Shown here: positions 9,732-27,019 of the stretch, one piece after another | How the letters are laid out: each line of letters starts with the position of its first letter | Position numbering within the stretch: the stretch's first letter is position 1 | From: Acetivibrio sp. | GTDB lineage: Bacteria; Bacillota; Clostridia; Lachnospirales; Lachnospiraceae | Length of the DNA: 64,000 nt | Assembly (NCBI GenBank): GCA_036658435.1 | Contig: JAVXEO010000004.1 | Location: forward strand, 120-64,119 | Direction of reading: 5' to 3' | Position numbers and translations under genes: made by a program | Notes under the pieces: generated by a model | What the model was told of the DNA's origin: nothing | What the model saw: the letters and a program-made list of their open reading frames with translations, nothing else | Database searches by the model: none

Positions 9732-9751
9732 TTTTTACCTCACCTTTAATT

Positions 9752-10186: not shown

Positions 10187-10203
10187 ACTTATCTTTCCCC
10201 CTT

Positions 10204-10671: not shown

Positions 10672-12054
10672 TTACTGTTCTCCAATTTCCACCAAACGTC
10701 TTTTTGCATCCGTTACACGGTCAGAATCCGGATACTCATTTATAATCTTATTATAATATTCTTTTGCTTTCTCATATTCACCCAGACGGTGATAGGCTCG
10801 GCCCATAAAATAAATTGCTTTTACATTATTGGAATCCATGGTAATGGCCCGTTCTAAGATAACAATTGCGTCTTCATACTTCCCACGGTTATAAAGAACA
10901 CGTCCCTCTTCTGCCGTACCTTCCGCTGCGTCCGCAAACGTACTTTCTTTAATTATTTTGTAAATTTCCTTCGCCTTTACATTCTCAATTGCACTGGGTT
11001 TTACCTGTGCTAATTCCTTTGCAGCATGGATCTTATCTCCATCTATATAGTACTGAATCGCAGAATAGAAGTTATCATATACCTTCTTATCCATCCTTTT
11101 TTCTTTTAATTGGTTTAATTCTTTTTCCAAGGATTTCATTTGCGTTTTCAGAGTCTCGTTTTCGTTTTCCAATTGGGTGCCCTGAATGCTCTGTACCGCC
11201 ATTTCATCGCTATATTTTTTAAACTGTTCCTCATACTGAGACGCAATGCTCTTTTTTGCCGTTGGTACAATTAAAAAATAGACCACACAAACGCCTAAAA
11301 TTGCACCAATTAGTAAGTTCAAATACGGCCAAAAGTTAAACTTTTCTTCCTTATAGGAACCTTGGCTAAACGTCTGTGGACTGAGATTCTGTTCCTGAAA
11401 TGTTCCGGCATGGTCACTGGATAACTTCTCACCGGAATTAGTAAAGGTTCCTGGTAAGGAATCCATATATTTCAAGGTCAATGTATTATTTCTATCAATT
11501 TTATTTGCTTTTGAAAGACATTTTGCAGCTTTTCTATTGTCTCCTGCCTTCATATATAAAAGTGCCAGCAACTGATAGCTTCGAATGAATTTAGGGTTTA
11601 AGCTGCTTACTTTTTCAAGCTGCATAATGGCCAGATCTTCATTTCCCTGTTTTGCATAAGTTAATGCACTATTATACTTTTTAATGGTTTGGTTTATACT
11701 CTCCAAGCTGGATGCATTCTTTTGAATCTGGTTCATGTAATTATCTGCTGGATTGTCATCATTTTGGAAGTTTTTGCTGAGAACCCACTGGCTTAAGGCT
11801 TCCACCACTTCTCCCATTTCATAGTATACCAAACCCAGGAGATTTCTGGCTGCTGTATTCTTTTTATTCAGTCGAAGACTATTTTCCAGGGAAGCTGCCG
11901 CTCCGGACAGATCTCGGACTTTTGCCTTTTCCAGCCCAACATTGTAATACATATTGGAGGCACTGACTGCTCTTTTATATACCGTTAAATCTTGTCCACA
12001 ATCACATCTTGTATTATGGTAAGATATTTCTTTCCCGCAAACCGGACAAATCAT
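10672..12054 (-). CDS. Zinc-ribbon / TPR-repeat membrane protein
   Basis: 460 aa. N-terminal CPVCG...CDCG zinc ribbon, TPR-like repeats, one central TM helix (LNLLIGAILGVCVVYFLIV), a coiled coil, and more TPRs at the C-terminus. Confidence 0.75.
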   Translation of the reverse strand: MICPVCGKEISYHNTRCDCGQDLTVYKRAVSASNMYYNVGLEKAKVRDLSGAAASLENSLRLNKKNTAARNLLGLVYYEMGEVVEALSQWVLSKNFQNDDNPADNYMNQIQKNASSLESINQTIKKYNSALTYAKQGNEDLAIMQLEKVSSLNPKFIRSYQLLALLYMKAGDNRKAAKCLSKANKIDRNNTLTLKYMDSLPGTFTNSGEKLSSDHAGTFQEQNLSPQTFSQGSYKEEKFNFWPYLNLLIGAILGVCVVYFLIVPTAKKSIASQYEEQFKKYSDEMAVQSIQGTQLENENETLKTQMKSLEKELNQLKEKRMDKKVYDNFYSAIQYYIDGDKIHAAKELAQVKPSAIENVKAKEIYKIIKESTFADAAEGTAEEGRVLYNRGKYEDAIVILERAITMDSNNVKAIYFMGRAYHRLGEYEKAKEYYNKIINEYPDSDRVTDAKRRLVEIGEQ

Positions 12055-12287
12055 TCCGCTGCCTCCTACTTGTTCTTTATTTCTTTTAGCATATCACGAA
12101 TTATATCATTTACATCTGTAGAATCATTCTTATATATGGCATCTTCTGCCTGCTCAATTTCTAAACTAGGCTGAAATTTTTCTATTTCTTCATCAAAATT
12201 AATCATCCGTACCTCCTAATATTTGCGTATACTCATCATACTCAAAATATGCAGTAAATGCAATAAAATCCTTTCGTCAGGAATCGA

Positions 12288-13673
12288 CTAAATATTAGCC
12301 TTAAATTCAATTTCATTGGCTTTTTTAAAGTAAGTTACATTATAATTTTCAGATTCCATCATTTTTGTTACTCCATTAATGGATACTTTACTTCCTCTGT
12401 AAATACTTTTTAAAACAACCAGTCTTGCCGTAGTAGAATTTTCGATTTTTAGTTTTGTATTTTTCAGTTCATTTTGTAAGCTAGAAACTACCGCATCCTT
12501 TTCTATCTTTATTCGCATAAGATGAAGTTTCTTTTCTGCTAAATCCGGATTGTTTCCTTTTTCCAGAATCTTATTGATTTGCATAATTCCGGTTTCCAAT
12601 CGATTTATTTCGTTTAGTGTATCATCATATTTTTCTTTTACTTTATTCATATGTTCATATATTTCTTTATCAACACCCAGTATTATTTCTGTTTTTACTT
12701 CTGACATATTTCCAATAATGGTGGCTTCTACTCTTTGAATAGCTGCAATCGAGCCGCCTACAATGATACCTTTTTTACCGGATACGATTATACTTTGTTC
12801 TGACATCATATGGCAGTTTAAGATGGCATTTGCTTTTATACTGCCTTTGGCATAAATAGTTGTCTGTTCAAAGAATTTACCGGAAACATCTCCACCGGCC
12901 CGAATTTCTCCTCTTCCGCTTCCCTGCATTCCATTCTTTAGAATAACATCTTTTCCTGCAATCAGCTGGGCACCCTCAACATGTCCATTTATGGTAATAT
13001 TTCCTCTTGCTGTAATTACCATTCCCGTCACAACCGTTCCCCGAACAAATACATCTCCTGCGAAATTAATATTTCCGGTAATTATGGTAACGTCCCCATC
13101 TATGGTTATCATGTTTAAAACATTAAGACGCTCATTTTCGTACTCAACCTTTCCGGTTAGAAGGGACGTATAGACTTTTTTGTCTTCCGATATGGCAAAT
13201 CCTTTTCCTTTTAATGGAGTAAGTTCTCTTCCTGTTTTTGCTAAAATTGGTTTTCCAAATACATCAACTCCATTACTTCCCGGCTCTGCAGGTTTATAAT
13301 GTACAATTTCTGCTCCCTCTTCTACGGCTGCAACATCCTGCATATTTCCATAGTCTACCGATCCATCCGGCAAAATTCTGGGTTTCTTATCTTTCACAAT
13401 CTGAAATAAAAACTGATATTCTCCATCTTTTCCATCCTGTACCGGAGTGCCTTCCGCTACCAGGGTTTCTGCAAAGTAGTCTTTTGTCTCAATTAATGCC
13501 TGAAGTACTTCTTCTTTGATTCCCTCCAGCACCCCATTTTTTTCAAGAAGCTCTTTTAGGTCCTTCACCTCATAGGACTCGTCTAAACTAGGTGGACACA
13601 GACTAAGAAACGCCTGGGTTCCATCTTCTGATATCTTAACCGTGGAATGGTTTGTTTCTATATTAATTGCCAT
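12288..13673 (-). CDS. FapA-like (DUF342) protein
   Basis: 461 aa. Central Gly/Val/Ile-rich beta-helix-like repeats (GDVTIITGNINFAGDVFVRGTVVTGMVITARGNITINGHVEG...) and a C-terminal coiled coil, as in flagellar-assembly-protein-A/DUF342 proteins. Confidence 0.7.
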   Translation of the reverse strand: MAINIETNHSTVKISEDGTQAFLSLCPPSLDESYEVKDLKELLEKNGVLEGIKEEVLQALIETKDYFAETLVAEGTPVQDGKDGEYQFLFQIVKDKKPRILPDGSVDYGNMQDVAAVEEGAEIVHYKPAEPGSNGVDVFGKPILAKTGRELTPLKGKGFAISEDKKVYTSLLTGKVEYENERLNVLNMITIDGDVTIITGNINFAGDVFVRGTVVTGMVITARGNITINGHVEGAQLIAGKDVILKNGMQGSGRGEIRAGGDVSGKFFEQTTIYAKGSIKANAILNCHMMSEQSIIVSGKKGIIVGGSIAAIQRVEATIIGNMSEVKTEIILGVDKEIYEHMNKVKEKYDDTLNEINRLETGIMQINKILEKGNNPDLAEKKLHLMRIKIEKDAVVSSLQNELKNTKLKIENSTTARLVVLKSIYRGSKVSINGVTKMMESENYNVTYFKKANEIEFKANI

Positions 13674-13689
13674 ATATCCACCTCTTTCT

Positions 13690-16353
13690 TTATTTTTTCA
13701 AATTGTTTAAACGTTCCGTGACTTGTTCCATCATATTGGTATATTTTTCAAGCTTTGCTTTTTCTTCTTCTATTTTTTCCTTCGGTGCTTTACTTACAAA
13801 ACGCTCATTGGAAAGCATTCCCTTTACACGTTTTAATTCTCCTTCTAAACGTATCTTTTCTTTCTCCAAACGTTCTATTTCTTTTGAGAGATCAACCAGT
13901 TCTGCAAAAGGCATATAAATTATAGCTCCATGAATCACCGTTGAAACCGCATCCTCTGGAATATCTGACTTATCCTTTTTCACAAGAACCTCGCTTGCAT
14001 ATCCAAGGGCTGAAAAGAATACATTATTTTCCTTGAATGTGTTTCGAATATTTTCATCTTCTGAAACAACGATTACCGTAGCCTTCTTGCTTGGGGGTAC
14101 ATTCATTTCTGCCCGTACATTACGAATTCCTTTTACGGCTGTTTTAATCATCTCTACCGCTGCTTCTTCTTTCTCAAAATTATATTTTTCCTGATACAGC
14201 GGCCACTGGGATATCATAATGGATTCTTCTTCCTCTTGTAAGGTACAAAAAATCTCTTCGGTAATAAATGGCATATAAGGGTGCAAAAGCTTTAAAGATT
14301 GAATTAATACAGACTTTAACGTCCATAGCGCTGCCCCTCTTGTTTCATCTTTATCATTATATAACCTTGGCTTTACCATTTCAATATACCAGTCACAAAA
14401 TTCTTCCCAAATAAAATCATAAACCTTCTGTACCGCAATTCCCAGTTCGAAATCTTCCATATTATCCGTAACTTCTTTTATAAGTTTGTTTACCTTGGAT
14501 AATATCCATTGATCTGCCTGGGTAAATCCCTCTTCCTTTGGTTCCGCTTTATCAAGATTCATCATAATAAAACGGGAGGCATTCCATACCTTATTGGCAA
14601 AGTTTCGACTTGCTTCCACACGCTCTATATAAAATCTCATGTCGTTTCCAGGTGCATTTCCGGTAATCAGAGTAAATCGAAGGGCATCGGCACCAAACTT
14701 TGAAATAATTTCCAAAGGATCAATCCCGTTACCAAGAGACTTGCTCATCTTTCTTCCTTCTGAATCACGAATTAGTCCATGAAAAAGAACGGTATCAAAT
14801 GGTTTTTCTCCCATATGTTCATATCCGGAAAACACCATGCGGATAACCCAGAAGAAAATAATATCATAGCCGGTTACCAGTACATTGGTAGGATAAAAGT
14901 ACTCCAGTTCCTCTGTTTTTTCCGGCCATCCTAAGGTGGAAAATGGCCAAAGTGCAGAGCTAAACCAAGTATCCAGCGTATCTTCATCCTGAGTCAAATG
15001 CCCGTAACCACATTTTGGACAAATCTCCGGTTTTTGGGAAGCTCTTGCAACTACAACTTCACCGCATTTATCACAATAGTATGCCGGAATTCTATGTCCC
15101 CACCATAATTGTCTGGATATACACCAATCGCGTATATTATCGGTCCAATTAAAATAAGTTTTTTTCATTCTTTCGGGTATTAACTGAATTTCTCCACTCT
15201 TAACCGACTCCACCGCAGGTTGAATCAGATCCTCCATTTTTACAAACCACTGTTGCTTAATCATAGGTTCTATCGTTGTTCCGCAACGGTCATGAGTCCC
15301 TACATTATGGGAGTGATCCACTACTTTAACCAAAAGACCGGCTTCCTCTAAGTCTTTTACCATAACTTTTCTGGCTTCGTAACGGTCCATCCCTGCATAT
15401 TTTCCACCCTTTTCATTGATGGTGGCATCATCATTCATAATATTAATTTCCGGAAGATTGTGTCTTTTTCCAACTTCAAAATCGTTTGGATCATGTGCCG
15501 GTGTAATCTTAACAACACCGGTTCCAAATTCTTTATCTACATAGGAGTCTGCAACTACCGGAATCTCTCTGTTGACAAGTGGCAGCACCACCATCTTTCC
15601 TATTAAATCCTGATAACGTGGATCCTCTGGATGTACAGCAACTGCCGTATCTCCAAGAAGAGTTTCCGGCCTTGTGGTTGCGATTTCTACGAATTGTCCT
15701 TCTTCTCCTGCAATAGGATACTTAATATGCCAAAAATGGCCTGCCTGTTCTTCATGTTCTACTTCCGCATCCGAAATAGAAGTCTGACAAACCGGACACC
15801 AGTTAATGATTCTGGAACCCTTATATATCCTGTCTTTTTCATATAATTTCACAAAAACTTCTTCTACTGCTTTTGAACAGCCCTCATCTAAAGTAAAGCG
15901 TTCTCTGTCCCAATCACAGGAAGAACCCAGTTTTTTCAACTGTTCTACAATGGTTCCGCCGTATTCTTCTTTCCACTCCCAGGTTCTTTTTAAAAAGCCT
16001 TCTCTTCCAAGCTCTTCCTTATCGATTCCTTCTTCTTTTAACTGATTCATAACTTTTACTTCTGTAGAAATACTTGCGTGGTCCGTACCGGGAAGCCATA
16101 GCGCTTCATATCCCTGCATTCTTTTAAATCGAATTAAAATATCCTGCATAGTCTCATCCAGAGCATGCCCCATATGCAGCTTTCCCGTAATATTGGGAGG
16201 GGGAATCACAATCGTAAACGGTTTCTTATTTTTATTTACTTCCCCATGAAAGTATTTCTTTTTTATCCATTTTGCATATAATCGATCTTCTATTTCATTT
16301 GGATCATATGTTTTTTCCAATTCTTTTTTCATTTTAATACCCATGCCTTTCAA
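13690..16353 (-). CDS. valS: Valine--tRNA ligase
   Basis: 887 aa. HIGH-type motif [18 protein letters not shown], and a C-terminal coiled coil. The track start is a TTG (16353). ATGs at 16344 and 16332 ([11 protein letters not shown]...) are equally possible. Confidence 0.95.
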
Positions 16354-16426
16354 TTTTTCTTACATTTGTGACTGTTTCCTGCCGCAATCGCAAATTCAAT
16401 CTATAGCCTTCGCTATCATAACTACA

Positions 16427-16455
16427 AGATTAGATAAAAAGTTCCCTCTTGTCAA
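16427..16455 (-). promoter_or_regulatory. Candidate sigma-A promoter for valS
   Basis: Minus strand reads TTGACA (16455-16450), 17 nt, TAATCT (16432-16427). The -10 is weak. Confidence 0.3.
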
Positions 16456-16470
16456 GTATTTTTCATAAGC

Positions 16471-17637
16471 TTATAAATTCAGGTCGTAGTTTCTTAAAGT
16501 ATCCATAACCTCGTCTCTCATTTTTTTGTTTTCATCCACAAATTCTTGAATTTCTTTTTTATTTTGTGCGTAAGTCTTATTATTATAGTCTAGGTTGTCC
16601 CGAAGTTTCTGTCGCCTGATATTCAGACGATGACGCACCTCTACCATTTCTCTTTTGTCGTTAATGGCCTCTGCCTGGTATAACCAGATTTCCCCATCTG
16701 AAATCTGGTATTTCTTTAACTCGCAAAGGAGTAAATCTTTTGCTTCCTTTAATTTTTCTGTATTTAATTCATATTTTTTTTCATTTTCCCTTGCTATTAA
16801 AAATTGTTTCCATATATATTCCAATTCGGTGGAACTACTCACATCAAATTTCTCATAAGCATATTCTAAAAGACTCATATTGTTTACATACTTAATTTTT
16901 ACTTTATTTAAAAGTCTAATGGCCTTATGCAATTTTCTACCAACTAACTGCATATCCTGACGGTTTTGATTTGCCTGTATAAAAATATAAAATCCTATGA
17001 TTGCTGCTAATACAATTGTTAAAAGGAAAGGAATTGCCATACTCTCTTCAAATGCCAAAGACAGTACCATCATTAGTGCAAACACGCTAATCACTAATAC
17101 CGCCATTGTTGTCACGGTCTTCTTTAAAAATGCCTGCTTTTCAATTAATTCTTCCTGCTCAAAAAGCAAGGCTCCCTTTTCTCCCTCTAAATGATACAAA
17201 TCCCCTTTAATAATACCATTATAACTCTCATTTCCACGCATGGTCTTTAATTCTTCTGCAATCTCTTTCCCCTGCTTCTCCAACATGCTTCTCTGCTGAC
17301 TGGTAATTTTTTCATCTTTTCCTTTATACTTTTCTCTTTCTTTTGTATAAAGAGTGATGTTTTCTGCTGCCTTTTCTATCACTTCTCGTTCATCCGAAGG
17401 AATCATATCGATTTTTTGAATATCTGTTAAATAAGAACTAACAATATGATATTCCCCCTTCATTTCTTCTATTTGGCGCTTTATTTCTACCATTTGCTCG
17501 CAGCAATCCACTACGTTTGTAATACTAACGGCTTTCTGTGGCTGTACTTCCTGTACCGTTTTGAGAACTTCTTCTTTCTGTAATGGAGTCCCCATTTTTT
17601 TTACTGATTTCTTAGAAAATCTTTTAAACAAGCCCAT
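16471..17637 (-). CDS. Hypothetical coiled-coil protein with central two-helix membrane hairpin (operon gene D)
   Basis: Long open frame. Start placed at ATG 17637 (MGLFKRFSKK...), preceded by AGGAAG at 9 nt and overlapping the stop of gene C by 14 nt. The track start at 17685 has no SD. Two adjacent TM helices (MAVLVISVFALMMVLSLAF / IPFLLTIVLAAIIGFYIFI) are flanked by heptad-rich segments. I recognise no family. Confidence 0.7.
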   Translation of the reverse strand: MGLFKRFSKKSVKKMGTPLQKEEVLKTVQEVQPQKAVSITNVVDCCEQMVEIKRQIEEMKGEYHIVSSYLTDIQKIDMIPSDEREVIEKAAENITLYTKEREKYKGKDEKITSQQRSMLEKQGKEIAEELKTMRGNESYNGIIKGDLYHLEGEKGALLFEQEELIEKQAFLKKTVTTMAVLVISVFALMMVLSLAFEESMAIPFLLTIVLAAIIGFYIFIQANQNRQDMQLVGRKLHKAIRLLNKVKIKYVNNMSLLEYAYEKFDVSSSTELEYIWKQFLIARENEKKYELNTEKLKEAKDLLLCELKKYQISDGEIWLYQAEAINDKREMVEVRHRLNIRRQKLRDNLDYNNKTYAQNKKEIQEFVDENKKMRDEVMDTLRNYDLNL

Positions 17638-18433
17638 TTTTATACTCTTCCTTCCATTTTGCAATGATTGCATAAAGATTTTCATAATAGATATCCACTT
17701 TTCCTTCTTCTTTCAATACATCCATTTCGGAAAGCTTCTGGTAAATGTCCAAGTGCTCTGCCTCTAGCATCGTCTCTTCTATTTTATTTAATAGCACTTC
17801 CTGACTTTTCTCTTGTTCCGAAAGATCCTTCTTCGTTAATTTCACACAAAATAAATAGGCCAATAGGGAATCCCGGCTCTTATTCTCTTGATATGCTTCT
17901 TCAAAGGTATTCGCTGCATCCATATAAGAGGAGGAATACAATTTTGTAATTCCCATATTATGTAAAACATTTCCTTTGAAAAGTTCCGATGTTTTTTCTG
18001 TTTTTACACGTTCCAATATTTCATTGTAAACCTTTGCTGCATGAAAATAATTTCCATTCTTTAAAAAATTATCCCCCCGTAACTTGTTTCTCTCTAGTTC
18101 GTTTACCTTTGCAAGTTTATCCATGGTTTTTATTAAATCTTTAATTTCCTGCTCTTCGTAATAATCTGTACTGCATAAAATGGTTACTACCATATCTTTT
18201 AAAGTCTCTTTTTGATGAAGCATCTTCTTTAGTTTATTTGCGGTTACCGGCATATTCCATTCCTTTTCTATAAAATCCATTAGTTCCAGTGTGAAATCCC
18301 TGCTAGAAAGGGTATAGATATTATTATATATATAGTAACACAATTCTTCCATTGAATAAACTTTCGTACTCGTAAGAGGAAAAAGAAAGGGTGTTTTTGA
18401 AATATTACCGGTACACAATATTAATTTTCCCAT
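17624..18433 (-). CDS. Hypothetical TPR-like helical protein (operon gene C)
   Basis: 269 aa, no signal peptide or TM helix. TPR-like pairs (GDNFLKNGNYFHAAKVYNEILE; GNVLHNMGITKLYSSSYMDAANTFEEAYQ). SD AGGAGA overlaps the stop codon of gene B. Confidence 0.7.
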   Translation of the reverse strand: MGKLILCTGNISKTPFLFPLTSTKVYSMEELCYYIYNNIYTLSSRDFTLELMDFIEKEWNMPVTANKLKKMLHQKETLKDMVVTILCSTDYYEEQEIKDLIKTMDKLAKVNELERNKLRGDNFLKNGNYFHAAKVYNEILERVKTEKTSELFKGNVLHNMGITKLYSSSYMDAANTFEEAYQENKSRDSLLAYLFCVKLTKKDLSEQEKSQEVLLNKIEETMLEAEHLDIYQKLSEMDVLKEEGKVDIYYENLYAIIAKWKEEYKNGLV

Positions 18434-18444
18434 TCACTATTCTC

Positions 18445-19710
18445 CTATATCTCCAGTCTTTTTTCCCAGATTCGGTTGGTAGAGGGTGCGTAGTCACCAA
18501 ACCCTTTATCTTTTATGGTTACAATGCAGGTTCTTATGTCTTCAAAATGAAAAGAAACCTCGAATCGCTCCATTCTTTTCCCACGTTTTGGCATATCTTC
18601 CAAGGTAATTACCCGAACTGTTTCCACTTTTTTCATAGGATCGAATATGTTTAGCTGCAATTCATCCTCTTCGTCAAAAATCAGGCAGATTTTGCTTTCG
18701 GCTTCTTTCCAATAAGTTCCCGTGGATATTACTTCTGTCTTCTGAACTTTTCCATCTCTATATAAACAAAGAGAAATGCTTTTTTCCAATATTCCTTCCC
18801 CTAAAAGTGTAAACTTCTCTTTGAATTCCTCCGTATTCATGTATCTTGCACTATAACAGGCACCATGTGTATAGATATTGGGTCCCCTAAATCCCCGTTT
18901 TCCCCTGCATAGTTCCTGAAGCACCCGGTCTGACCAATTCGACAAAAAACCTTCTCCTACAAAGTAAAGCGTTGAGATGCTTTGTTTATTAAGAATTTTT
19001 CCAGCAAAGCCCAGAAAATGTTCTGTAAGCGTTTCATATTCTCTATGTTCAAGCATTTCATAAGTAATTTCCTTTGTGCCTTCTCTTTTTTCCAGTCCAA
19101 TTAACATGGGCCGTACTTTGCGGTTAATATGTATTTGATAATACATCATCCCCTTTTTGGAATAATCAAACAATGCAACGTCCTGACTCCACAGTTCTCT
19201 CTTCTGGTTCAGAGCATAGTACAAATAACTTTGACTATGTTCCTGAACAAAGGCACGATTTTTTTCAATTCCCATATGCTCCAATGCTTTATAGATCATT
19301 TCTACTAAAAACAAATTCATTTCTTCCAAGGTTACTACAATTTTATGAATCCTATTGTCTCCATAATATTTTTGTAAAAGCAAAAGGGTTTTTCTAAAAT
19401 ACTTTTCCAAAATAACGCTGCCATCAAAGACGGAATCATAAATAACAAAAGATTCCTTTCTTTTAATTTGTTCCAATATATTATCTATTAAAATACCATC
19501 CTCATGTTCTGCCATCATACAGGCATCTTCACCAAAGAGCCATTCTCGCTTTGTCTCGGTCACTCCCAAAGTAGTAGGAATAAAGTGATAGTTTTCGCCT
19601 GTCGTTCCACCAATTGTTTCAATTACGCCAGTCACCGGATGGAAACAACTGATTTGTGAATATTGATTTCCCAAATCAAACCCTATATCCAGGTCTTTAT
19701 TTTTTTCCAT
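18445..19710 (-). CDS. Divergent, truncated Hsp70-like protein: actin-fold NBD plus SBD-beta-like domain, degenerate phosphate loops (operon gene B)
   Basis: 421 aa. DIGFDLGNQYSQIS compares with Hsp70 IGIDLGTTNS. VALFDYSKKGMMY compares with DLGGGTFD. LYFVGEGFLSNW compares with ILVGGQTRMP. The C-terminal ERFEVSFHFEDIRTCIVTIKDKGFG compares with [24 protein letters not shown]. There is no lid and no EEVD tail. SD GGAG at 8 nt. Confidence 0.7.
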   Translation of the reverse strand: MEKNKDLDIGFDLGNQYSQISCFHPVTGVIETIGGTTGENYHFIPTTLGVTETKREWLFGEDACMMAEHEDGILIDNILEQIKRKESFVIYDSVFDGSVILEKYFRKTLLLLQKYYGDNRIHKIVVTLEEMNLFLVEMIYKALEHMGIEKNRAFVQEHSQSYLYYALNQKRELWSQDVALFDYSKKGMMYYQIHINRKVRPMLIGLEKREGTKEITYEMLEHREYETLTEHFLGFAGKILNKQSISTLYFVGEGFLSNWSDRVLQELCRGKRGFRGPNIYTHGACYSARYMNTEEFKEKFTLLGEGILEKSISLCLYRDGKVQKTEVISTGTYWKEAESKICLIFDEEDELQLNIFDPMKKVETVRVITLEDMPKRGKRMERFEVSFHFEDIRTCIVTIKDKGFGDYAPSTNRIWEKRLEI

Positions 19711-19750
19711 TTTCTGCTCTCCATCCTTTCTATATGCCGGTCATAAACAT

Positions 19751-22700
19751 TTATAATATTTTTATAAGTGTTTTCCCTGCGTATTTAATTTTTGCATAAT
19801 ATTTCATTAAAGCCAACATTGTTTTTTCGTCCTGCATTTCCTTTGCTGTAAGCATTAAATTTAACAGTTCAAACATACTTTCATTGGATTCTTCATTCCC
19901 TGCATTTTTCATATCCACACGAACGCTTTCGGTAATAATTTCTTCTTTTCCGTTGTCTTCTGAAATATAGTACTGAAGGACCTCATCTTGAAAAAGGAGA
20001 AATTTGATTACATGAATGCCATAATAGCTGTCTTCCATTGTTTCCGTTATAAAGGATTCCCTGTTTTCCCCGTTCTCTCTAAAGTAGTGAATTTTAACAC
20101 TGTTTTTCGGATTGCATTTATATTCTACAAAGTAATGACTGCGAATTTCTAAAGGAAGTGTCATTCTGTCAGAAAATTTCTTGTAACAGGGAAGAAGAAT
20201 TCCCCGCTCTGTCATTTTCTTTATCTGCTTTTCACAAAATGCAAGTTCTTCCTGGGCAAGTGTTTCCTGTCCACTATAATAAAATAATAAGGCTAAGATA
20301 CAAACCGTACTTTCCTCAAAGCAATTCTCTTTTTTTAATAGTTCAAATATTTCAGGATGAACAATCCGTTCATTTAAAAGGTATTTATATGCGTTGTAGC
20401 ATAAGAAAGCTTTTATAATGGTTGGGTCTCCTCCTTTGTTATAATAGGAGTGAAATACATCATAGGCAGTCATTACATAGCTTTCCCCAAATAACATTTG
20501 ACCAAGAAGTTTTTCTTCTAACCCATAGGTATCTAGCTGAAAGTTTTGTGCACAATTCCACAGCTGCAGAAGCATCTTGGTACTTCCCTCAAAGTGCTCC
20601 ATTAAATAGCAAAGGATTATCTCATTATATTTTCCTTCCTGAAATAAGTAAAAAGCAAGATCTAATTGAAACTTATTTTTTATTTTGTGTCCGTTCTTTT
20701 CTATTTCCTCTGTGCAAAAACGAATCAACTGATTTGTTGGAATTCCATCAAATCCATATTCCCGAAGTGAAAATACTGTTTTTTCATAAAGTTCATGTAT
20801 CATGCAATAAGAAATAGCCTTAGAACGAAAATCCGGTTTCAAAAGATCAAAATCTGCAATAAGAAGCATTTCTTTTAATGCCTCATTTTCCATAGCCTCA
20901 AAGTAATAAGAAATCAATCTTTCATAGCATCTTCCTTTATAATAATTTTTGAATCCCGGCAATAAAATACATCTTCTTTGTACATAAATGGAATACTCGT
21001 TGTTTTTTTGATATTTATCTATTTTCTCAAATAAATTCATCATCAGCATGGGACTATTTTTACATACCTCATAGCACTTTTGTGCCAATCCATGAATATG
21101 CAGCAGTTCCGTTAATTGGAATGAAATACTTTCTCCATAGCGGTTTCCATTTTTATCTATAAATACAATGCTTGGAGATTCTGTAAAAACTTGGATATAT
21201 CCAATTCCATCCTTTAAAAGAGTGTACTCTTCCTTTTCCATTTCTTTATGTGAAACATAAACGCCTATTATATTTTCATTGGTGCAAACCAATTTATGGC
21301 GAAACATAATTTCTGAAAGTGCCGGAGAAATTCCTTCCTTCACCTCTTCTAGTTGAATAAACTCCTGATAAAGTACGGACAGATTTTCATCCATTCTTTC
21401 TTCCTTAATCTGTTCGATTGTAAATTTCTGCATTTTCTTGTGATAAAGAAGATATGTGTTTTTATCTTTATTTTTATTTTTTACTATGTAGGCATAGAGA
21501 TAAGCCTTTTTTTCCCAAGTGAGATTATTATCATATTGGAAAAAAAGAAGAAGGGAGGAGGGAATTTTTTTCTGATAATCTTCCGGCATGGTATATAAAT
21601 AATATTCATATAAATTTTCTATCTTTAAATTTTCTTCTTCCCCCAAGGAAAACCATGGGAAATATTTTGCATCCTTTTTTTTATTTTGAATGAGTATCTT
21701 ACAAATACTAAATAATATTTCTTTACTTTTCGTATGGTCATAAAGAGCAAATAAAGGTTTTAGAATCCAAAAATCAGCCTTTCCTTCCTGTTCTGCTGTA
21801 AAGCAATACAGATCAATTAACTCCTGGTTTAAACAATTCATTCGGATTCCCCAGCTTAAAACCCGTAACAGTACCGGTGCAAAAGCTTCCCTTGCTCTTT
21901 TGTCATTCTGTAAGCAAAGACAGGCTTCATAATAGAGAACCGGACTATTGACTCCTTTTTCTAGTTTGCCTTCAATATCCTTCCACATTTTTTCGCTATT
22001 TCTATCATAATCCCCATCTAAATACAATAAAAACCACAGCATCTGCCATTTATCAAATCCGTTCTCATAATAAGTGCGAATACTGGAAGCTGCCTCTTCA
22101 ATGTATTCCTTCTTTTTGGTATATAAAGCGCGTAAATACAGAAAAGATGAATAAAACAGTATCGATTCTTCTTTCATGGCCTCTTGATTTTCTTCCATAT
22201 CTTTTATAACATCTTCTGCCAGTGGCTGGTGATCCATAATATAATAGTGAAGTTTCAAAAGCTTGTGTTCCCAGAAAGAATGGGTCTCTTTTCCATTTTT
22301 TATAATCGCAGACAGTTCTGCAATATATTGATCTGGTGCAATTTGATTGGTTCTTAAGTTCAAATAATTCTGAAAGAAAATAAGAATCTGTTCTTTCCTT
22401 TTTCGTTGTTCTTCGTGCTTTTTCTTAGGAAGCACCGAAACACTCACCGTTACTTCCATAGTGGAAAATATGGTCTGTATTGTGATTCTGCCAAAATTAT
22501 TTCCCTTTCGTAAAAAAGAAGCATCTACCAAAAATTCCAAATCAAAAGAATTACCAATAAAATCTTTTGTTGTAATTTCCTTCTTTTCTAAAACTAAAAA
22601 TGGAGCATCCCCCTCTATTTGAATCTTTTCATAACCCCAGTTGTCCTTCATTATTGTTATTTTGTCTGCAAAATTAGTGAGACATTTTGTGTATAAAAGT

Positions 22701-23293
22701 TCCGTCCGGTCTACCGTAATATTGATTTTGGACTTTTTTTGTATTGCAATTAAGAATTCTTCGAGTGCAACATTCCTATCCTTTCCTTTGATTAAGCTGG
22801 CATAAAGGGTTTTCAGATGTTCTTCTTTTAAAAATATTCGTCCAAAATCTCTGGTTTCAAAAAGCTGTAGTGCTTCTTCCCAATCACTTTGTGCAAGGTT
22901 AGCAAAATGAAATAAATCCTTGATTTTCCCTAGCGATGTCTGTCCATACGCTTCCGTTACTTCTATTGAAATTGGAAGGTTAACCTCTCCGCAGCAGCTG
23001 ACAATAAAAAGTTTTCCCTTGCTTTTTTCACCGGCTATGGCTTTTTTGGCATCAAAACGGTATTGGATTTCATTGGTTTTTCCGTTAAACATAGGATTTA
23101 TAATATGTAGTTCCGGTAAAGAAGAATAGACAATTCCCTTCATTTTCTTTTCCTGTTCATTTGAAATCCATAAACTTCCCGTAGCCACTGAACCAATTTC
23201 TGCTATAATCGAAATTTGTTCTTCAGACAATAAAATTTCCGGTAATTCATATTCAAAATTTTCCTTTGCCAAACGTTTTATTTTCTCTCTCAC
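19751..23293 (-). CDS. Hypothetical 1180-aa cytoplasmic protein: N-terminal beta-sandwich domains plus long alpha-helical repeat region (operon gene A)
   Basis: Single uninterrupted 3.5-kb frame with GTG start preceded by GGGAGGA at 8 nt. No signal peptide or TM helix. The first ~290 aa have an alternating beta-strand pattern (GSLWISN..., KGKLFIVSCCGEVNLPISIEV, GRITIQTIFSTMEVTVSVSV). The rest is helix-rich and rich in Y/F/L/K/E. I have an unverified memory that similar Clostridia proteins are listed only as DUF families. Confidence 0.75.
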   Translation of the reverse strand: MREKIKRLAKENFEYELPEILLSEEQISIIAEIGSVATGSLWISNEQEKKMKGIVYSSLPELHIINPMFNGKTNEIQYRFDAKKAIAGEKSKGKLFIVSCCGEVNLPISIEVTEAYGQTSLGKIKDLFHFANLAQSDWEEALQLFETRDFGRIFLKEEHLKTLYASLIKGKDRNVALEEFLIAIQKKSKINITVDRTELLYTKCLTNFADKITIMKDNWGYEKIQIEGDAPFLVLEKKEITTKDFIGNSFDLEFLVDASFLRKGNNFGRITIQTIFSTMEVTVSVSVLPKKKHEEQRKRKEQILIFFQNYLNLRTNQIAPDQYIAELSAIIKNGKETHSFWEHKLLKLHYYIMDHQPLAEDVIKDMEENQEAMKEESILFYSSFLYLRALYTKKKEYIEEAASSIRTYYENGFDKWQMLWFLLYLDGDYDRNSEKMWKDIEGKLEKGVNSPVLYYEACLCLQNDKRAREAFAPVLLRVLSWGIRMNCLNQELIDLYCFTAEQEGKADFWILKPLFALYDHTKSKEILFSICKILIQNKKKDAKYFPWFSLGEEENLKIENLYEYYLYTMPEDYQKKIPSSLLLFFQYDNNLTWEKKAYLYAYIVKNKNKDKNTYLLYHKKMQKFTIEQIKEERMDENLSVLYQEFIQLEEVKEGISPALSEIMFRHKLVCTNENIIGVYVSHKEMEKEEYTLLKDGIGYIQVFTESPSIVFIDKNGNRYGESISFQLTELLHIHGLAQKCYEVCKNSPMLMMNLFEKIDKYQKNNEYSIYVQRRCILLPGFKNYYKGRCYERLISYYFEAMENEALKEMLLIADFDLLKPDFRSKAISYCMIHELYEKTVFSLREYGFDGIPTNQLIRFCTEEIEKNGHKIKNKFQLDLAFYLFQEGKYNEIILCYLMEHFEGSTKMLLQLWNCAQNFQLDTYGLEEKLLGQMLFGESYVMTAYDVFHSYYNKGGDPTIIKAFLCYNAYKYLLNERIVHPEIFELLKKENCFEESTVCILALLFYYSGQETLAQEELAFCEKQIKKMTERGILLPCYKKFSDRMTLPLEIRSHYFVEYKCNPKNSVKIHYFRENGENRESFITETMEDSYYGIHVIKFLLFQDEVLQYYISEDNGKEEIITESVRVDMKNAGNEESNESMFELLNLMLTAKEMQDEKTMLALMKYYAKIKYAGKTLIKIL

Positions 23294-23312
23294 TCCGGGG
23301 TTCCTCCCATAT

Positions 23313-23340
23313 TTGCTTTTTTATAAAAAAACGATATAAT
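23313..23340 (+). promoter_or_regulatory. Candidate divergent promoter of the cobD-like gene
   Basis: TTGCTT (23313-23318), 16 nt, TATAAT (23335-23340). It sits back-to-back with the -10 of the opposite promoter. Confidence 0.4.
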
Positions 23341-23344
23341 AGTA

Positions 23345-23374
23345 ATTATAACACTGTAACCCTAGAACATTCAA
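23345..23374 (-). promoter_or_regulatory. Candidate sigma-A promoter of the four-gene operon
   Basis: Minus strand reads TTGAAT (23374-23369), 18 nt, TGT-TATAAT (extended -10, 23350-23345), about 45 nt upstream of the GTG start. Confidence 0.5.
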
Positions 23375-23402
23375 CACTTTAGGAAAGGATTCTACACATA
23401 AA

Positions 23403-24500
23403 ATGATAAAATTAAAAGAACATTTTCATGGAAGTGACCTAGAACAGATAGAAGCTTCCTATGGTATAAAAAAAGAGGACATTGTTAGTTTTGCTGCCAA
23501 TGTAAATCCTCTTGGTATTTCCAGCCAGCTTCGTGAAACCTTGGTCTCTCATATTGATGCCATTACAAGTTATCCGAATCGTGATTACACGCCTTTGCGG
23601 AAGGCCATTGCTGAATATATTCATGCCGATTTTGAAGCCATACTGGTGGGAAATGGTTCCACCGAACTAATCTCTTTGTTTATCCAGTGCCTTCACCCTG
23701 ACAAAACGCTGATTCTCGGTCCAACTTATTCCGAATATGAAAGAGAAGTTTCCATAGAAAATGAAAGTGGAAGCTGTCAATACTATGCATTAAAAGAAGA
23801 GCAGAATTTTGTTCTGGATGTACCGGATTTTCTTACTCACTTAAGTCCAAATTTGGATTTGGTTATTCTTTGTAATCCAAACAACCCTACTTCTTCTTAC
23901 ATTTCTACCTCACAGATGAAACAAATTTTAACCGCTTGCAAAAGAAATCACACCTTTGTATTAGTAGACGAAACCTATGTGGAATTTACCGAAAAAATAG
24001 AGGAAATTTCTTCGGTTTCTTTAACCGGTACCTATGATAATCTGATAGTTTTACGTGGTATCTCTAAGTTTTTTGCAGCTCCCGGTCTTCGTCTTGGTTA
24101 TGCGGTTTGCAACAATCCCGATTTGCTTTTTCTGATCCATGAGAAAAAAAATCCATGGACCATTAATAGTCTGGCTGCTATTGCCGGTGAAATTATGTTT
24201 AAAGACAGCCATTATATTGAGGAAACAAAAGCTCTCATCTTCCAGGAGAGAACCCGTATTGTAGCTTTATTGCAGGAAATTCCCTTTCTTAAGGTATATC
24301 CGCCTAGTGCTAATTTTGTTTTAGTTCGCATCTTAAAAAAAGAAATCACTGCAGAGGATATTTTTGAAACTGCCATAAAAAAAGGATTGATGATACGGGA
24401 TTGTTCCACTTTTCCGTTTTTGGATGAACGTTATTTCCGTTTTTGCTTCATGAAGCCGGAGCAAAATGACAGCCTTCTTTCTGTTTTAAAAGATTTATAA
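23403..24500 (+). CDS. cobD: PLP-dependent class I/II aminotransferase-fold enzyme, threonine-phosphate decarboxylase (CobD)-like
   Basis: 365 aa. HGSD...FAANVNPLG...YPNRDY..., LRGISKFFAAPGLRLGY (PLP lysine) and RDCSTFPFLDERYFRFCF align motif-for-motif with my memory of Salmonella CobD. A HisC-family aminotransferase cannot be excluded. Confidence 0.65.
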   Translation: MIKLKEHFHGSDLEQIEASYGIKKEDIVSFAANVNPLGISSQLRETLVSHIDAITSYPNRDYTPLRKAIAEYIHADFEAILVGNGSTELISLFIQCLHPDKTLILGPTYSEYEREVSIENESGSCQYYALKEEQNFVLDVPDFLTHLSPNLDLVILCNPNNPTSSYISTSQMKQILTACKRNHTFVLVDETYVEFTEKIEEISSVSLTGTYDNLIVLRGISKFFAAPGLRLGYAVCNNPDLLFLIHEKKNPWTINSLAAIAGEIMFKDSHYIEETKALIFQERTRIVALLQEIPFLKVYPPSANFVLVRILKKEITAEDIFETAIKKGLMIRDCSTFPFLDERYFRFCFMKPEQNDSLLSVLKDL

Positions 24501-24507
24501 AGAAAAT

Positions 24508-24552
24508 ACAGAAGGGCTAAGTTACATGAAAAAGGCAGCTTAGCTCTTCTGT
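24508..24552. terminator. Hairpin between convergent cobD-like and nrdD genes
   Basis: 14-bp stem ACAGAAGGGCTAAG / CTTAGCTCTTCTGT with one G-U pair and a 17-nt loop. A T-rich tail (ATTTTCTTT) follows in the minus-strand sense. Confidence 0.55.
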
Positions 24553-24568
24553 AAAATTTTGTTATTTC

Positions 24569-26878
24569 TTATAGTAATTCTACATATTGTTTGATGTTTT
24601 GTACGGATACATGACTGTCTGCTTTTTCTCCATTAAGAACAAGCAATGTGGGTGCCTGTCGAATTCCATACTTTTTGACCATATCTGCATTTTCTTCTGC
24701 TAAGGCTGTTTCATAGGGAACTTTGGCATTATCTAATATATTTTTTGCCGTTTTACAGTTTGGGCAAGTTTTTGTTACAATTAAAATTCGTTTTATTTTC
24801 ACTTGCGTTTTTTCTATATTGTATAGTTTACGTTCTTTAAATTCCTGACTCTTGCCTGCGTTCCAGTTTTGAACCGGTCTGTAATACCCGGTAATACGGC
24901 TATATACCTCTGTTTTTACGCCACATTCCGGACAAATATAGTGTTCTCCCGGAATATAACCATGTTCTTTACAGATGGAATACGTTGGAGAAATGGTATA
25001 ATATGGCAAACGATAGTTTTCTGCAATTTTTTTAACCAAGTTTGCCGCTGCCTTCCAGGAGGGAAGTTTTTCTCCTAAGAAAGCATGAAATACCGTGCCT
25101 GATGTATACAGGGTCTGGAGTTCATCCTGAATATCCAATGCTTCGAAAATATCATCTGTAAAGCCAACCGGAAGATTGGTACTATTGGTATAGTATGGTG
25201 TTTCATTGTCCTCGCAGGCCGTCTTTATATCTGGAAACTGCTCTACATCGTGCTTTGCCAAACGATAGGTTGTCGATTCCGCCGGAGTTGCCTCTAAGTT
25301 GTACAAATCACCATATTTTTCCTGATAATCAGAGAGTCGATCCCTCATATGATTCAATACTTCTTTTGCAAACTTCTGCGTCTTTTCGCTGGTCATATCT
25401 GCCTGTAGCCAGTTTGCATTCAAACCCACTTCATTCATGCCAATTAAACCAATCGTTGAAAAATGATTGTCAAAGCTTCCAAGATAACGTTTCGTATAAG
25501 GGTAGAGCCCCTCATTTAATAATTTTGATATAATCGTTCTCTTTGTCTTTAATGATCTTGCTGAAATATCCATCATTTTATTTAATCGGCGGTAAAAATC
25601 AGCCTCGTTCTCTGAAAGATATGCAATTCTAGGTAAGTTAATGGTAACAACACCAACGGATCCTGTACTTTCACCACTTCCAAAAAAGCCACCGGATTTT
25701 TTTCGAAGTTCCCGAAGATCAAGGCGTAAACGGCAGCACATGCTTCTTACATCGTTTGGTTCCATTTCACTATTAATATAATTAGAAAAATAAGGAGTTC
25801 CATATTTTGATGTCATTTCAAACAACAGCTTATTATTCTCTGTTTCAGACCAGTCAAAATCCTTTGTAATGGAGTAAGTAGGAATGGGGTATTGGAATCC
25901 GCGTCCATTGGCGTCTCCTTCTATCATGGTCTCGATAAACGCTTTGTTTATCATATCCATTTCCTTTTTACAGTCTTTATACTTAAAGTTCATTTCTTTT
26001 CCACCTACAATAGCATTTTGCTCTGCTAAATCACTTGGAATGGTCCAATCCAGCGTAATATTGGAAAAAGGTGCCTGCGTTCCCCAGCGACTTGGAATAT
26101 TTACTCCATAGATAAAGGATTCAATGCAATTTTTCACCTGATTGTAGGAAAGATTATCTTTCTTTACAAAAGGGGCCAGATAGGTATCAAAAGAAGAAAA
26201 TGCCTGGGCTCCTGCCCATTCGTTTTGCATGATACCAAGAAAGTTAACCATTTGGTTGCAGAGGCTGGCTAAGTGTGCTGCCGGTTTTGAAGTAATCTTT
26301 CCGGTAACTCCCCCAAGCCCTTCCTGAATCAATTGTTTTAAGGACCAGCCTGCACAGTATCCTGTAAGCATGGATAAATCATGAATATGTATTTCTGCAT
26401 TTCTATGAGCATTTGCAATTTCTTCATCGTATATTTCAGAAAGCCAGTAATTGGCTGTAATTGCGCCGGAGTTGCTTAATATCAGTCCACCCACAGAATA
26501 GGTGACCGTAGAGTTCTCCTTTACACGCCAATCGGATAAATGTACATAATTATCCACAATTTCCTTATAGTCTAAAATCGTAGACTTCATATTTCTAATT
26601 TTTTCCCTTTGTTTCCGGTATAAGATATAGGCTTTGGCAACGTCGGCATAACCAGACTGTTCCAATATTGCTTCTGCACTATCTTGTATGTCTTCCACAT
26701 GAACCAGTGAATTTTTAATATGTGGTTCATAATGTGCTGTTGTTTTTAAAGCAAGAAGGTCTACAATACTCTGATTGTACTGCTTATTTTGCGCTTCAAA
26801 CGCTTTCATTATTGCTTCGCTGACCTTTTTCAAATCAAATTCTACAATTTTTCCATCTCTTTTTACTACCTGATACAT
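24569..26878 (-). CDS. nrdD: Anaerobic ribonucleoside-triphosphate reductase (class III) with fused C-terminal thioredoxin-fold (CPNC) domain
   Basis: N-terminal ATP-cone (MYQVVKRDGKIVEFDLKKV). C-terminal Zn-ribbon CPECG and glycyl-radical motif RITGYY. About 77 extra residues follow, with a CPNC redox motif. Start moved to ATG 26878 (GGAGG at 9 nt). The track's 11-codon extension lacks an SD. Confidence 0.9.
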   Translation of the reverse strand: MYQVVKRDGKIVEFDLKKVSEAIMKAFEAQNKQYNQSIVDLLALKTTAHYEPHIKNSLVHVEDIQDSAEAILEQSGYADVAKAYILYRKQREKIRNMKSTILDYKEIVDNYVHLSDWRVKENSTVTYSVGGLILSNSGAITANYWLSEIYDEEIANAHRNAEIHIHDLSMLTGYCAGWSLKQLIQEGLGGVTGKITSKPAAHLASLCNQMVNFLGIMQNEWAGAQAFSSFDTYLAPFVKKDNLSYNQVKNCIESFIYGVNIPSRWGTQAPFSNITLDWTIPSDLAEQNAIVGGKEMNFKYKDCKKEMDMINKAFIETMIEGDANGRGFQYPIPTYSITKDFDWSETENNKLLFEMTSKYGTPYFSNYINSEMEPNDVRSMCCRLRLDLRELRKKSGGFFGSGESTGSVGVVTINLPRIAYLSENEADFYRRLNKMMDISARSLKTKRTIISKLLNEGLYPYTKRYLGSFDNHFSTIGLIGMNEVGLNANWLQADMTSEKTQKFAKEVLNHMRDRLSDYQEKYGDLYNLEATPAESTTYRLAKHDVEQFPDIKTACEDNETPYYTNSTNLPVGFTDDIFEALDIQDELQTLYTSGTVFHAFLGEKLPSWKAAANLVKKIAENYRLPYYTISPTYSICKEHGYIPGEHYICPECGVKTEVYSRITGYYRPVQNWNAGKSQEFKERKLYNIEKTQVKIKRILIVTKTCPNCKTAKNILDNAKVPYETALAEENADMVKKYGIRQAPTLLVLNGEKADSHVSVQNIKQYVELL

Positions 26879-27019
26879 ACTGATCATCCTCCAAAAAAAT
26901 CTGTATTTCATGAAAATTTCTACTTATTACAGTAGCATACATACTTTTTATTGTCAACTTAAATACCACATATAGTGCCTGTTTTTTTATTTTCAACTAA
27001 ATGTTGAAAAACGCCCATT

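Follow-up and report, generated by a model that had tools for sequence, protein, structure and literature searches.

An Hsp70-fold protein family with an eroded nucleotide site in a conserved four-gene operon of the Lachnospiraceae

The window analyzed here is a 64,000-nucleotide stretch of contig JAVXEO010000004.1 from Acetivibrio sp., a member of the Lachnospiraceae (GenBank assembly GCA_036658435.1). It encodes a 421-residue protein of the Pfam family DUF5716, and we report that this protein is a relative of the chaperone Hsp70, with a domain like the Hsp70 nucleotide-binding domain (NBD), a hydrophobic interdomain linker and the beta-sandwich of the substrate-binding domain (SBD-beta). Throughout the family, most of the residues with which DnaK, the bacterial Hsp70, binds phosphate and hydrolyzes ATP have been replaced or have become variable, and most of lobe IIB of the NBD, the helical lid and the C-terminal tail are missing. 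The gene belongs to a conserved four-gene operon and is recurrently fused to the gene that follows it, which encodes a tetratricopeptide repeat (TPR) protein. It is probable, in our view, that DUF5716 proteins have left the nucleotide cycle and would serve as binding or adaptor subunits of a scaffold complex tethered to the membrane.

Hsp70 is the archetypal ATP-driven chaperone, and how its fold comes to be repurposed is not yet settled; in 2026 a review listed many DnaK-derived paralogues in bacteria whose role is unknown (PMC13580251). DUF5716 would be an extreme case, in which a widespread bacterial protein with an architecture of NBD, linker and substrate-binding basket has shed its ATPase residues, lobe IIB and lid and has become a fixed part of a conserved operon in which its partners are of scaffold type, and it would offer a natural test of what the Hsp70 body can do without a nucleotide cycle. 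The analysis also provides a first structural hypothesis for four uncharacterized gene families, two of them without a Pfam entry, that are near-universal in the Lachnospiraceae, a dominant gut group; it should be relevant to the chaperone and pseudoenzyme fields and to gut-microbe biology. Literature searches on DUF5716 and DUF5717, on Hsp70-like proteins in Lachnospiraceae and on degenerate, lidless DnaK-like proteins found nothing relevant, the one text match to "DUF5716" being a paper on mismatch-repair pathways and curcuma derivatives, and DUF5716 is not mentioned in either of the reviews on bacterial DnaK derivates.

Results

The resemblance of the DUF5716 protein to Hsp70 is not revealed by routine annotation, because the 421-residue protein matched neither Pfam HSP70 (PF00012, E <= 1) nor any NCBIfam model, and a single-sequence search of PDB sequences gave no match; a family profile was required. 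The HSP70 model likewise failed to match any of 40 family members at the same threshold. What Pfam does report is DUF5716_C (PF18980), which covers residues 123-420 (E 7.7e-89, 298 bits, against a cutoff of 34.7); the model spans just this part of the protein and carries no Hsp70 annotation in the resources used. The window protein is a full-length member of this family (E 8e-89), as the product of the preceding gene is of DUF5717 (PF18983 and PF18984), and both families are catalogue entries without an assigned function.

Four independent lines of evidence (profile against PDB, structure prediction, Foldseek and profile-profile comparison) confirm that DUF5716 is an Hsp70 relative composed of NBD, linker and SBD-beta, and not a protein of the MreB, ParM, EutJ or FtsA type. 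In total, 47 homologues were gathered, 40 of which were aligned as a family profile. The best match of this profile among PDB sequences was Mycobacterium tuberculosis DnaK (E 0.05), in two collinear pieces, one in the N-terminal phosphate-1 region and the other in the SBD-beta strands (query 358-407 to DnaK 420-469). An AlphaFold2 model built with the same alignment had a mean predicted local distance difference test score (pLDDT) of 90.8 and a predicted template-modeling score (pTM) of 0.83. When this model was compared with the PDB by Foldseek, the top 50 matches, over approximately 500-540 alignment columns that span both domains, were exclusively Hsp70 and Hsp110 chains, the best being Geobacillus kaustophilus DnaK (4ani_C, E 4.3e-20); MreB, FtsA, ParM and EutJ were absent from these 50. 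The matches included lid-deleted constructs of DnaK, BiP and mortalin (5obu/5obv, 7a4u/7a4v and 9blu) as well as the Ssz1 chains 6sr6 and 5mb9 of the ribosome-associated complex, and identity to Hsp70s in the structural alignments was 10-16%.

Profile-profile comparison gave the same answer. Using hhalign, the family profile was aligned to a reference profile of Escherichia coli DnaK, HscA, HscC and YegD with a probability of 90% and E 1.6e-6 over 387 columns, collinearly from query 6-405 to DnaK 2-494. The NBD part alone aligned to the Hsp70 profile from query 6-222 to DnaK 2-243 (E 4.4e-5), and the SBD part alone picked out DnaK 453-495. Against single E. coli sequences HscC ranked top (P 0.0012), but the signals are too faint to position the family relative to DnaK, HscA, HscC and YegD, and such a ranking is not a phylogeny; alignments to E. 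coli MreB, FtsA, EutJ and EutA were short, non-collinear and non-significant (P 0.02-0.25). A preliminary description of the gene, made from its sequence, had called the protein a truncated Hsp70 homologue and had named, as the finding that would speak otherwise, a different actin-like fold lacking an SBD-like C-terminal domain. The structural and profile comparisons agree on Hsp70, far beyond chance, and neither the Foldseek matches nor the alignments to other actin-like proteins support such a fold.

The motifs of the protein could be followed one by one along DnaK (Table 2). The five motif strings singled out in the preliminary description are present in the translation (residues 10-19, 155-167, 181-190, 249-259 and 383-405), and its pairings for phosphate-1, connect, phosphate-2 and SBD-beta were reproduced in the profile-profile alignment. 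The adenosine pairing was not recovered in the full-length alignment, and a global hhalign of the lobe II region failed, but a local run on a narrower slice (residues 236-310) recovered it, matching YFVGEGFLSNW with DnaK ILVGGQTRMPM. The same local alignment paired GKRGFRGPN with DnaK GKEPRKDVNP, and the C-terminal NBD helix THGACYSA with AIGAAVQG. LFGEDA, which had been taken for the catalytic-lysine region, aligns instead to DnaK LVGQPA at approximately residues 49-54. DnaK K70 itself maps to L79 (family profile against PDB) or to D76 (hhalign), and the conclusion that there is no catalytic lysine nevertheless stands, because no conserved lysine occurs anywhere in the K70-aligned stretch across the family.

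Two features of the protein had gone unremarked, as had its operon context. The hydrophobic interdomain linker is retained, with FTLL opposite DnaK 389-VLLL-392; its family consensus is [FY]-[LIV]-[FLI]-L, and L303 is conserved at 86%. Lobe IIB, the lobe that in Hsp70 binds GrpE and takes part in contacting adenosine, is mostly deleted, since approximately 44 residues lead from the phosphate-2 hairpin to the adenosine strand, compared with approximately 120 in DnaK, and in the AlphaFold2 model this region consists of one strand and two helices alone. That the lid and C-terminal tail are absent, as had been described, follows from the end of the protein, which lies 6 residues past W415, the conserved tryptophan of the last beta strand, at approximately DnaK residue 505. 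The tail past this position is 6-7 residues long in 97 of 114 family members.

Erosion of the nucleotide site was assessed in an alignment of these 114 sequences, which came from 40 proteins and 80 genomic loci (Table 1). From the DnaK catalytic and phosphate-binding set (D8, T11/T12, K70, E171, D194, G196-G198, T199 and D201), the equivalents of D8 and D194 alone are retained. In DnaK, K70 contacts the gamma-phosphate and stabilizes the transition state, and P143 is a relay residue (PMC8215388). The loss of the glycine-rich phosphate-2 loop and of the paired threonines of phosphate-1, which had been described for the window protein, holds for the family, in which these positions are replaced or variable, and no alignment restored the normal ATPase motifs that a better alignment might have brought to light.

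Table 1. State of DnaK nucleotide-site positions in 114 DUF5716 family sequences. Roles of positions other than K70 and P143 are those of general Hsp70 structure.
DnaK position	State in the DUF5716 family
G6	G10, 100%
D8	D12, 98%
T11 / T12	N/D/E and D/E/Q
K70	No conserved Lys within residues 72-84
P143 (allosteric relay)	Variable
E171	S 52% / N 21%
D194	D or E, 88%
G196-G198	Variable polar
T199	Gly, 86%
D201	Variable
G341	G252, 100%
Q343	G254, 94%

The pattern of conservation in DUF5716 differs from the catalytic signature of Hsp70. The most conserved stretches are S-Y-x-Y-Y-A-L-x-Q-K-x-E-L-W (residues 161-174), T-G-x-G-F...W...L-C-x-G-R-R-V-F-x-G-x-N-L-Y-x-x-G-A-C-Y (residues 251-286) and D-K-G-F-G...N-R-I-W-E-K (residues 401-417); G10, W57, Q169, G252, G283, A284, W334, G403, F404 and G405 are invariant. 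At 50% identity the family falls into 1974 clusters (E <= 1e-3), 717 of them with E <= 1e-30; at least 238 species-level genomes carry relatives, and pairwise identities within the family are 23-98% (mean, 40%). In a family this large, widespread and diverse, the eroded state is a stable one under evident purifying selection, and not a stage of decay.

Related loci were found with 18 closer sequences, since the full 40-sequence alignment lacked a conserved stretch, and synteny was determined by tblastn of the neighboring genes of the window against 81 loci. As far as their labels go, the 80 loci kept are of Lachnospiraceae type (Anaerocolumna, Anaerosporobacter, Velocimicrobium, Jutongia, Roseburia sp. 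and Anaeromicropila); many carry just a higher rank (Bacillota, Clostridiales) or belong to metagenome-assembled genomes under other labels (Clostridiaceae bacterium, Clostridium sp.). The proteins of the window itself match, at 100% identity, entries labeled "MAG: Acetivibrio sp." The order of the cassette is DUF5717, DUF5716, a 269-residue TPR protein and a membrane coiled-coil protein of approximately 390 residues. DUF5716 is accompanied by DUF5717 in 77 of the 81 loci, by the 269-residue protein in 79 and by the membrane protein in 71, and most absences coincide with contigs that end near the DUF5716 gene. The window carries all four genes in the order and orientation seen in the related loci, separated by 40 nucleotides, 11 nucleotides and a 14-nucleotide overlap. 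A scan of the window found no terminator-like site on the minus strand within the cassette, and upstream of the DUF5717 gene there is a sigma-70-like promoter match, with GGGAGG and then a GTG start downstream of it. Taken together, the gene order and spacing point to an operon that is conserved across, and near-universal in, the Lachnospiraceae. No DnaJ or GrpE domain was detected by Pfam in the cassette or in the neighboring genes scanned; partners encoded elsewhere in the genome are possible.

DUF5716 and the TPR protein are fused in at least 11 lineages. In 11 proteins of 703-737 residues the TPR protein is fused to the C terminus of DUF5716; in most of these fusions the 269-residue part begins at its own residue 1 or 2, and in most the motif G-[KR]-L-I lies approximately 10-22 residues (mostly 13-20) past the end of DUF5716. 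Fusion that recurs in this way argues strongly for a physical partnership between the two proteins. The TPR assignment comes from the profile of the 269-residue protein, which matched TPR proteins in the PDB with E 1e-4 to 1e-3 (best, 1.3e-4). Its N-terminal domain is novel, without a PDB sequence match, and starts with the invariant sequence M-G-K-L-I-x-C, in which I5 and C7 are conserved at 100% in 73 sequences.

Searches of PDB sequences with DUF5717, with the membrane protein and with the N-terminal domain of the 269-residue protein gave no informative match. The AlphaFold2 model of DUF5717 (pLDDT, 87) has two N-terminal immunoglobulin-like (ASH/PapD-like) beta-sandwiches, two long alpha-solenoids and two more beta domains. 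Its Foldseek matches, with low TM-scores, were to ASH/PapD-like domains (the ciliary central-apparatus structures 7sqc and 9ijj, 9fh8, CEP192 SPD-2 and 2qsv) and to TPR superhelices, including Ski3 (4buj_F). In this model DUF5717 looks like a scaffold without a recognizable enzyme domain.

The fourth protein has a basic N terminus, a coiled-coil-like region, a two-helix transmembrane hairpin at approximately residues 174-222 and, at its C terminus, a helical domain that is conserved; hydropathy analysis revealed no transmembrane-like segment in the other three cassette proteins. It has no relative in Pfam, NCBIfam or the PDB. A profile search returned 723 matches, and the best 120 of these 723 are unnamed or are called "hypothetical" or "putative membrane"; the few named sources among these 120 are organisms of the same kind. 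We revised the start of this gene to the ATG at 17637, with the ribosome-binding site GGAAGGAAG, because homologues begin at a conserved basic N terminus (MGLF.../MAFW...). The mechanical open reading frame start at 17685 (16471..17685, minus strand) is probably wrong.

Discussion

By fold and descent, DUF5716 belongs to the Hsp70 superfamily; in a working sense it is not an Hsp70, as it has no match to a curated model, no catalytic residues, no complete NBD, no lid and no J-protein or GrpE partner among the genes scanned. We propose, with moderate confidence, that DUF5716 is a non-cycling Hsp70-fold binding or adaptor subunit of a membrane-tethered scaffold complex. The protein derives from Hsp70 and retains the actin-like NBD fold (minus most of lobe IIB), the linker and SBD-beta; with the helical lid, the tail and the phosphate-binding and ATP-hydrolyzing residues lost, the ATP-driven chaperone cycle would, according to this proposal, have been abandoned. 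DUF5716 would then be a fixed binding or adaptor subunit in which the NBD-like and SBD-beta domains are permanently docked. A physical link would connect it with the TPR protein and probably also with the DUF5717 scaffold, and the fourth protein would anchor the complete complex to the membrane on its cytoplasmic side. The analysis shows the homology and fold, the family-wide erosion of motifs, the conserved operon and the recurrent fusion; the loss of ATPase activity, the formation of a complex, its membrane tethering and the segment, if any, in the SBD-beta cleft are inferred. The proposal is favored by the partner proteins, which have scaffold-type folds exclusively, one of them with a transmembrane hairpin, and by the lack of J-domain or GrpE proteins in the genes scanned. 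The preliminary description had left a choice between a pseudo-ATPase used as a binding module and a very unusual nucleotide cycle; we favor the former, although sequence alone cannot settle the choice.

Several points weigh against this proposal. G10, D12 (98%), D/E182 (88%), S/T18, Q19, G252 and G254 are still conserved at the old nucleotide site, and a noncanonical ligand or metal site is therefore possible. Furthermore, actin-fold proteins bind phosphate largely via backbone amides, so that side-chain changes alone are no proof of lost binding. As to the architecture, permanent docking would have as its basis the pTM of 0.83 and the best TM-scores to docked-type DnaK states, and a contact of DUF5717 or of the membrane protein with DUF5716 would have conserved adjacency as its basis.

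These same conserved residues, together with the retained hydrophobic linker, which is central to Hsp70 allostery, also speak for a different explanation, namely, that DUF5716 is a working, nucleotide-dependent Hsp70-type chaperone with a noncanonical active site, specialized for one client at the membrane. In place of J-proteins and GrpE it would have the TPR protein and DUF5717 as co-chaperones of its own, an arrangement loosely like that of membrane-directed HscC with DjlB and DjlC. There is precedent in that HscA and HscC work without GrpE and with dedicated membrane-anchored partners (PMC8215388), and the neighborhood of E. coli hscC likewise holds TPR-like Sel1 proteins. However, the equivalent of K70 is lost, as are the P143 relay, E171, T199, D201 and the glycine-rich loop; acidic residues sit in the phosphate-1 loop, lobe IIB is mostly gone, there is no lid for trapping a client, and no J-domain protein is encoded in the cassette or the neighboring genes scanned. 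We regard a working chaperone as possible but rather unlikely. The hscC neighborhood of E. coli K-12 (676000-688000; locus L004) encodes the J-proteins DjlB and DjlC, two Sel1 (TPR-like) proteins and two DUF1266 proteins; in combining a specialized Hsp70 with TPR-like and membrane-anchored partners, it is loosely analogous to the DUF5716 cassette.

The adaptor proposal can be carried further, to a picture that is speculative and, as a whole, unlikely. The cassette might encode an unrecognized, Lachnospiraceae-specific membrane-tethered machine built around a frozen Hsp70-client joint, in which the lidless, nucleotide-free SBD-beta would clamp the M-G-K-L-I-x-C terminus of its TPR partner while the eroded NBD would dock the 1180-residue immunoglobulin-like/TPR scaffold. 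The idea that the SBD-beta cleft holds the N terminus of the TPR protein is suggested by the resemblance of this terminus to NRLLLTG, the model peptide of DnaK (PMC8215388), and by the nearness of the two in the fusions.

It can also be envisioned that DUF5716 is a co-chaperone of a canonical DnaK that acts through NBD-NBD heterodimerization in the manner of Hsp110, a role that has been proposed for DnaK paralogues that contain an NBD and in which domains are shortened or absent (PMC13580251) and that would draw on the retained NBD-like domain and linker. We consider this very unlikely. Those paralogues have a conserved DnaK-like NBD, whereas that of DUF5716 has diverged beyond the reach of Pfam HSP70 (0 of 40 members at E <= 1) and lacks most of lobe IIB. 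In addition, such a role fits the operon evidence poorly: in the loci examined the DUF5716 gene was never seen with dnaK, dnaJ or grpE, its partners are three non-chaperones, and its fusion partner is the TPR protein.

Two further explanations can be set aside. That DUF5716 represents another actin-fold family (MreB, ParM, FtsA, EutJ or PilM type) whose C-terminal beta domain is unrelated and whose motifs resemble those of Hsp70 just superficially would accord with the general order of ASKHA motifs, common to all such families, and with the weak hhalign matches to single Hsp70 sequences, but it is effectively refuted by the Foldseek matches, by a profile alignment that stays collinear across the linker and SBD-beta as far as DnaK residue 494, by the SBD-only match to DnaK 453-495 and by the poor alignments to MreB, FtsA, EutJ and EutA. 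That it is a decaying, nonfunctional relic of a duplicated dnaK, which the loss of catalytic motifs and domains might suggest, is refuted by family-wide conservation, with the open reading frame intact at approximately 420 residues in 238 species genomes and 1974 clusters, invariant positions from G10 to G405 and strictly conserved operon partners.

Compared with canonical DnaK, HscA and HscC, DUF5716 has the same collinear series of phosphate-1, connect-1, phosphate-2, adenosine and C-terminal helix motifs in an NBD fold, the same kind of hydrophobic linker and the SBD-beta signature L-x-G-[LI]-P...R...[IV]-x-V-x-F...DK-x-x-G. It differs from them in having lost the residues for catalysis and phosphate binding, most of lobe IIB and both lid and tail, in its low structural identity (10-16%) and escape from Pfam HSP70, and in residing in its own four-gene operon with no J-protein or GrpE among the genes scanned.

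In behavior, the closest analogues would be the lidless or non-cycling Hsp70 derivatives that work in complexes, and the bacterial DnaK derivates would also be close. Like DUF5716, Ssz1/HSPA14, HSPA12A/B and Hsp110 are derived from Hsp70, and, as we propose for DUF5716, they have given up the normal chaperone cycle and act as subunits or regulators of larger complexes. Unlike it, they are eukaryotic proteins that have a recognizable Hsp70 NBD with lobe IIB, still bind nucleotide and are partnered by J-proteins; the bacterial DUF5716 is far more diverged, and its partners are TPR, immunoglobulin-like/solenoid and membrane proteins. HspA12A/B and HspA14/Ssz1 are without the alpha-helical lid, Hsp110 retains a lid but for the most part dispenses with DnaJ, GrpE and substrate binding, and Ssz1 is stably built into the ribosome-associated complex as a subunit (PMC13580251). 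Among bacteria, E. coli YegD and many Myxococcus paralogues are extra Hsp70-family genes of unknown function in which the lid or SBD is shortened or deleted (PMC13580251). YegD is an NBD and nothing more, with neither linker nor basket nor lid, whereas DUF5716 has a linker and basket; the myxobacterial derivates have a conserved DnaK-like NBD, whereas that of DUF5716 is eroded. The depth of NBD erosion and the nature of its partners set DUF5716 apart from all of these analogues.

Features and genomic surroundings

The coordinates of the cassette genes and of the segments of the DUF5716 protein are collected in Table 2.

Table 2. Features of the DUF5716 cassette in the window.
Feature	Coordinates	Strand	Basis and remarks
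Gene 1, DUF5717 protein, 1180 residues, soluble	19751..23293	-	Pfam DUF5717_N/DUF5717, E 2e-261 and 6e-86
Gene 2, DUF5716 protein, 421 residues, lidless Hsp70-fold protein	18445..19710	-	Intact open reading frame, ATG start
NBD-like domain, residues 1-295, lobe IIB cut to ~44 residues	18826..19710	-	hhalign, model secondary structure, sub-alignment of residues 236-310
Phosphate-1 hairpin GFDLGNQYSQ, residues 10-19 (DnaK GIDLGTTNSC)	19654..19683	-	Profile alignments; G10 and D12 retained
Region aligned to DnaK Lys70, GILIDNILEQIKR	19459..19497	-	Profile alignments; no conserved Lys
Connect-1 helix VQEHSQSYLYYAL, residues 155-167 (DnaK INEPTAAALAYGL)	19210..19248	-	hhalign; most conserved family stretch
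Phosphate-2 hairpin FDYSKKGMMY, residues 181-190 (DnaK YDLGGGTFD)	19141..19170	-	hhalign; D/E retained
Adenosine-motif equivalent YFVGEGFLSNW, residues 249-259 (DnaK ILVGGQTRMPM)	18934..18966	-	Local sub-alignment
Interdomain linker FKEKFTLLGEG (DnaK DVLLLDV)	18793..18825	-	hhalign, family alignment, sub-alignment
SBD-beta-like sandwich, residues 307-421	18448..18792	-	Profiles, Foldseek; ends in invariant D-x-G-F-G and N-R-I-W-E-K, no lid after
SBD-beta strands FEVSFHFEDIRTCIVTIKDKGFG, residues 383-405 (DnaK strand segment of 23 residues)			hhalign
Gene 3, 269-residue TPR protein	17624..18433	-	Starts 11 nucleotides past the DUF5716 stop; TPR region ~residues 115-200
Gene 4, 388-residue membrane protein	16471..17637	-	Start overlaps the gene 3 end by 14 nucleotides
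Sigma-70-like promoter match TTGAAT-18-TGnTATAAT, upstream of the DUF5717 gene	23345..23374	-	Consensus scan, 10/12, extended -10; consensus match only

The genes around the cassette are ordinary chromosomal ones: valS, an aminotransferase gene, nrdDG, spoIIAB/sigF, purB/purF and signaling genes. A defense-system or phage origin was considered and rejected, as none of the four proteins matched PADLOC and PHROGs gave only noise (E > 0.03), an assignment supported by the chromosomal housekeeping context. The two cassette-bearing loci L031 and L078 are contigs of one metagenome-assembled genome (uncultured Jutongia sp., CAYYGS01), and the presence of a DUF5716 cassette on each could be due to a true duplication, a strain mixture or binning contamination.

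The valS gene (13690..16353, minus strand) lies 117 nucleotides from the cassette (gap, 16354..16470), and it may be cotranscribed with it, because this gap is short and has no terminator-like site on the minus strand; no Rfam family, such as a T-box, was detected in 9000..25000. A valS gene is found downstream of the cassette in 42 of the 81 related loci. In the Anaerosporobacter-type loci (L012-L016), approximately 4 kb of extra DNA (~13450..17400) separates the fourth cassette gene from valS. Downstream of valS, the window encodes (9018..13673, minus strand) a FapA/DUF342 protein, a 460-residue TPR protein, a SpoIIAB-like anti-sigma kinase and a sigma-F-like sigma factor; the FapA and 460-residue TPR genes are syntenic in closer relatives alone (12 and 20 of the 81 loci, respectively).

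Elsewhere in the window, a gene at 24569..26911 (minus strand) encodes a 780-residue anaerobic ribonucleotide reductase, NrdD, to which a glutaredoxin/thioredoxin-like domain (Pfam Glutaredoxin, residues 710-758) is added at the C terminus, and alongside it lies a gene for an NrdG-like radical-SAM activase (27020..27718, minus strand). A tandem pair of 5'-nucleotidase/metallophosphoesterase genes occupies 49757..53910 (minus strand), and the larger of the two products has a C-terminal match to choline-binding repeats.

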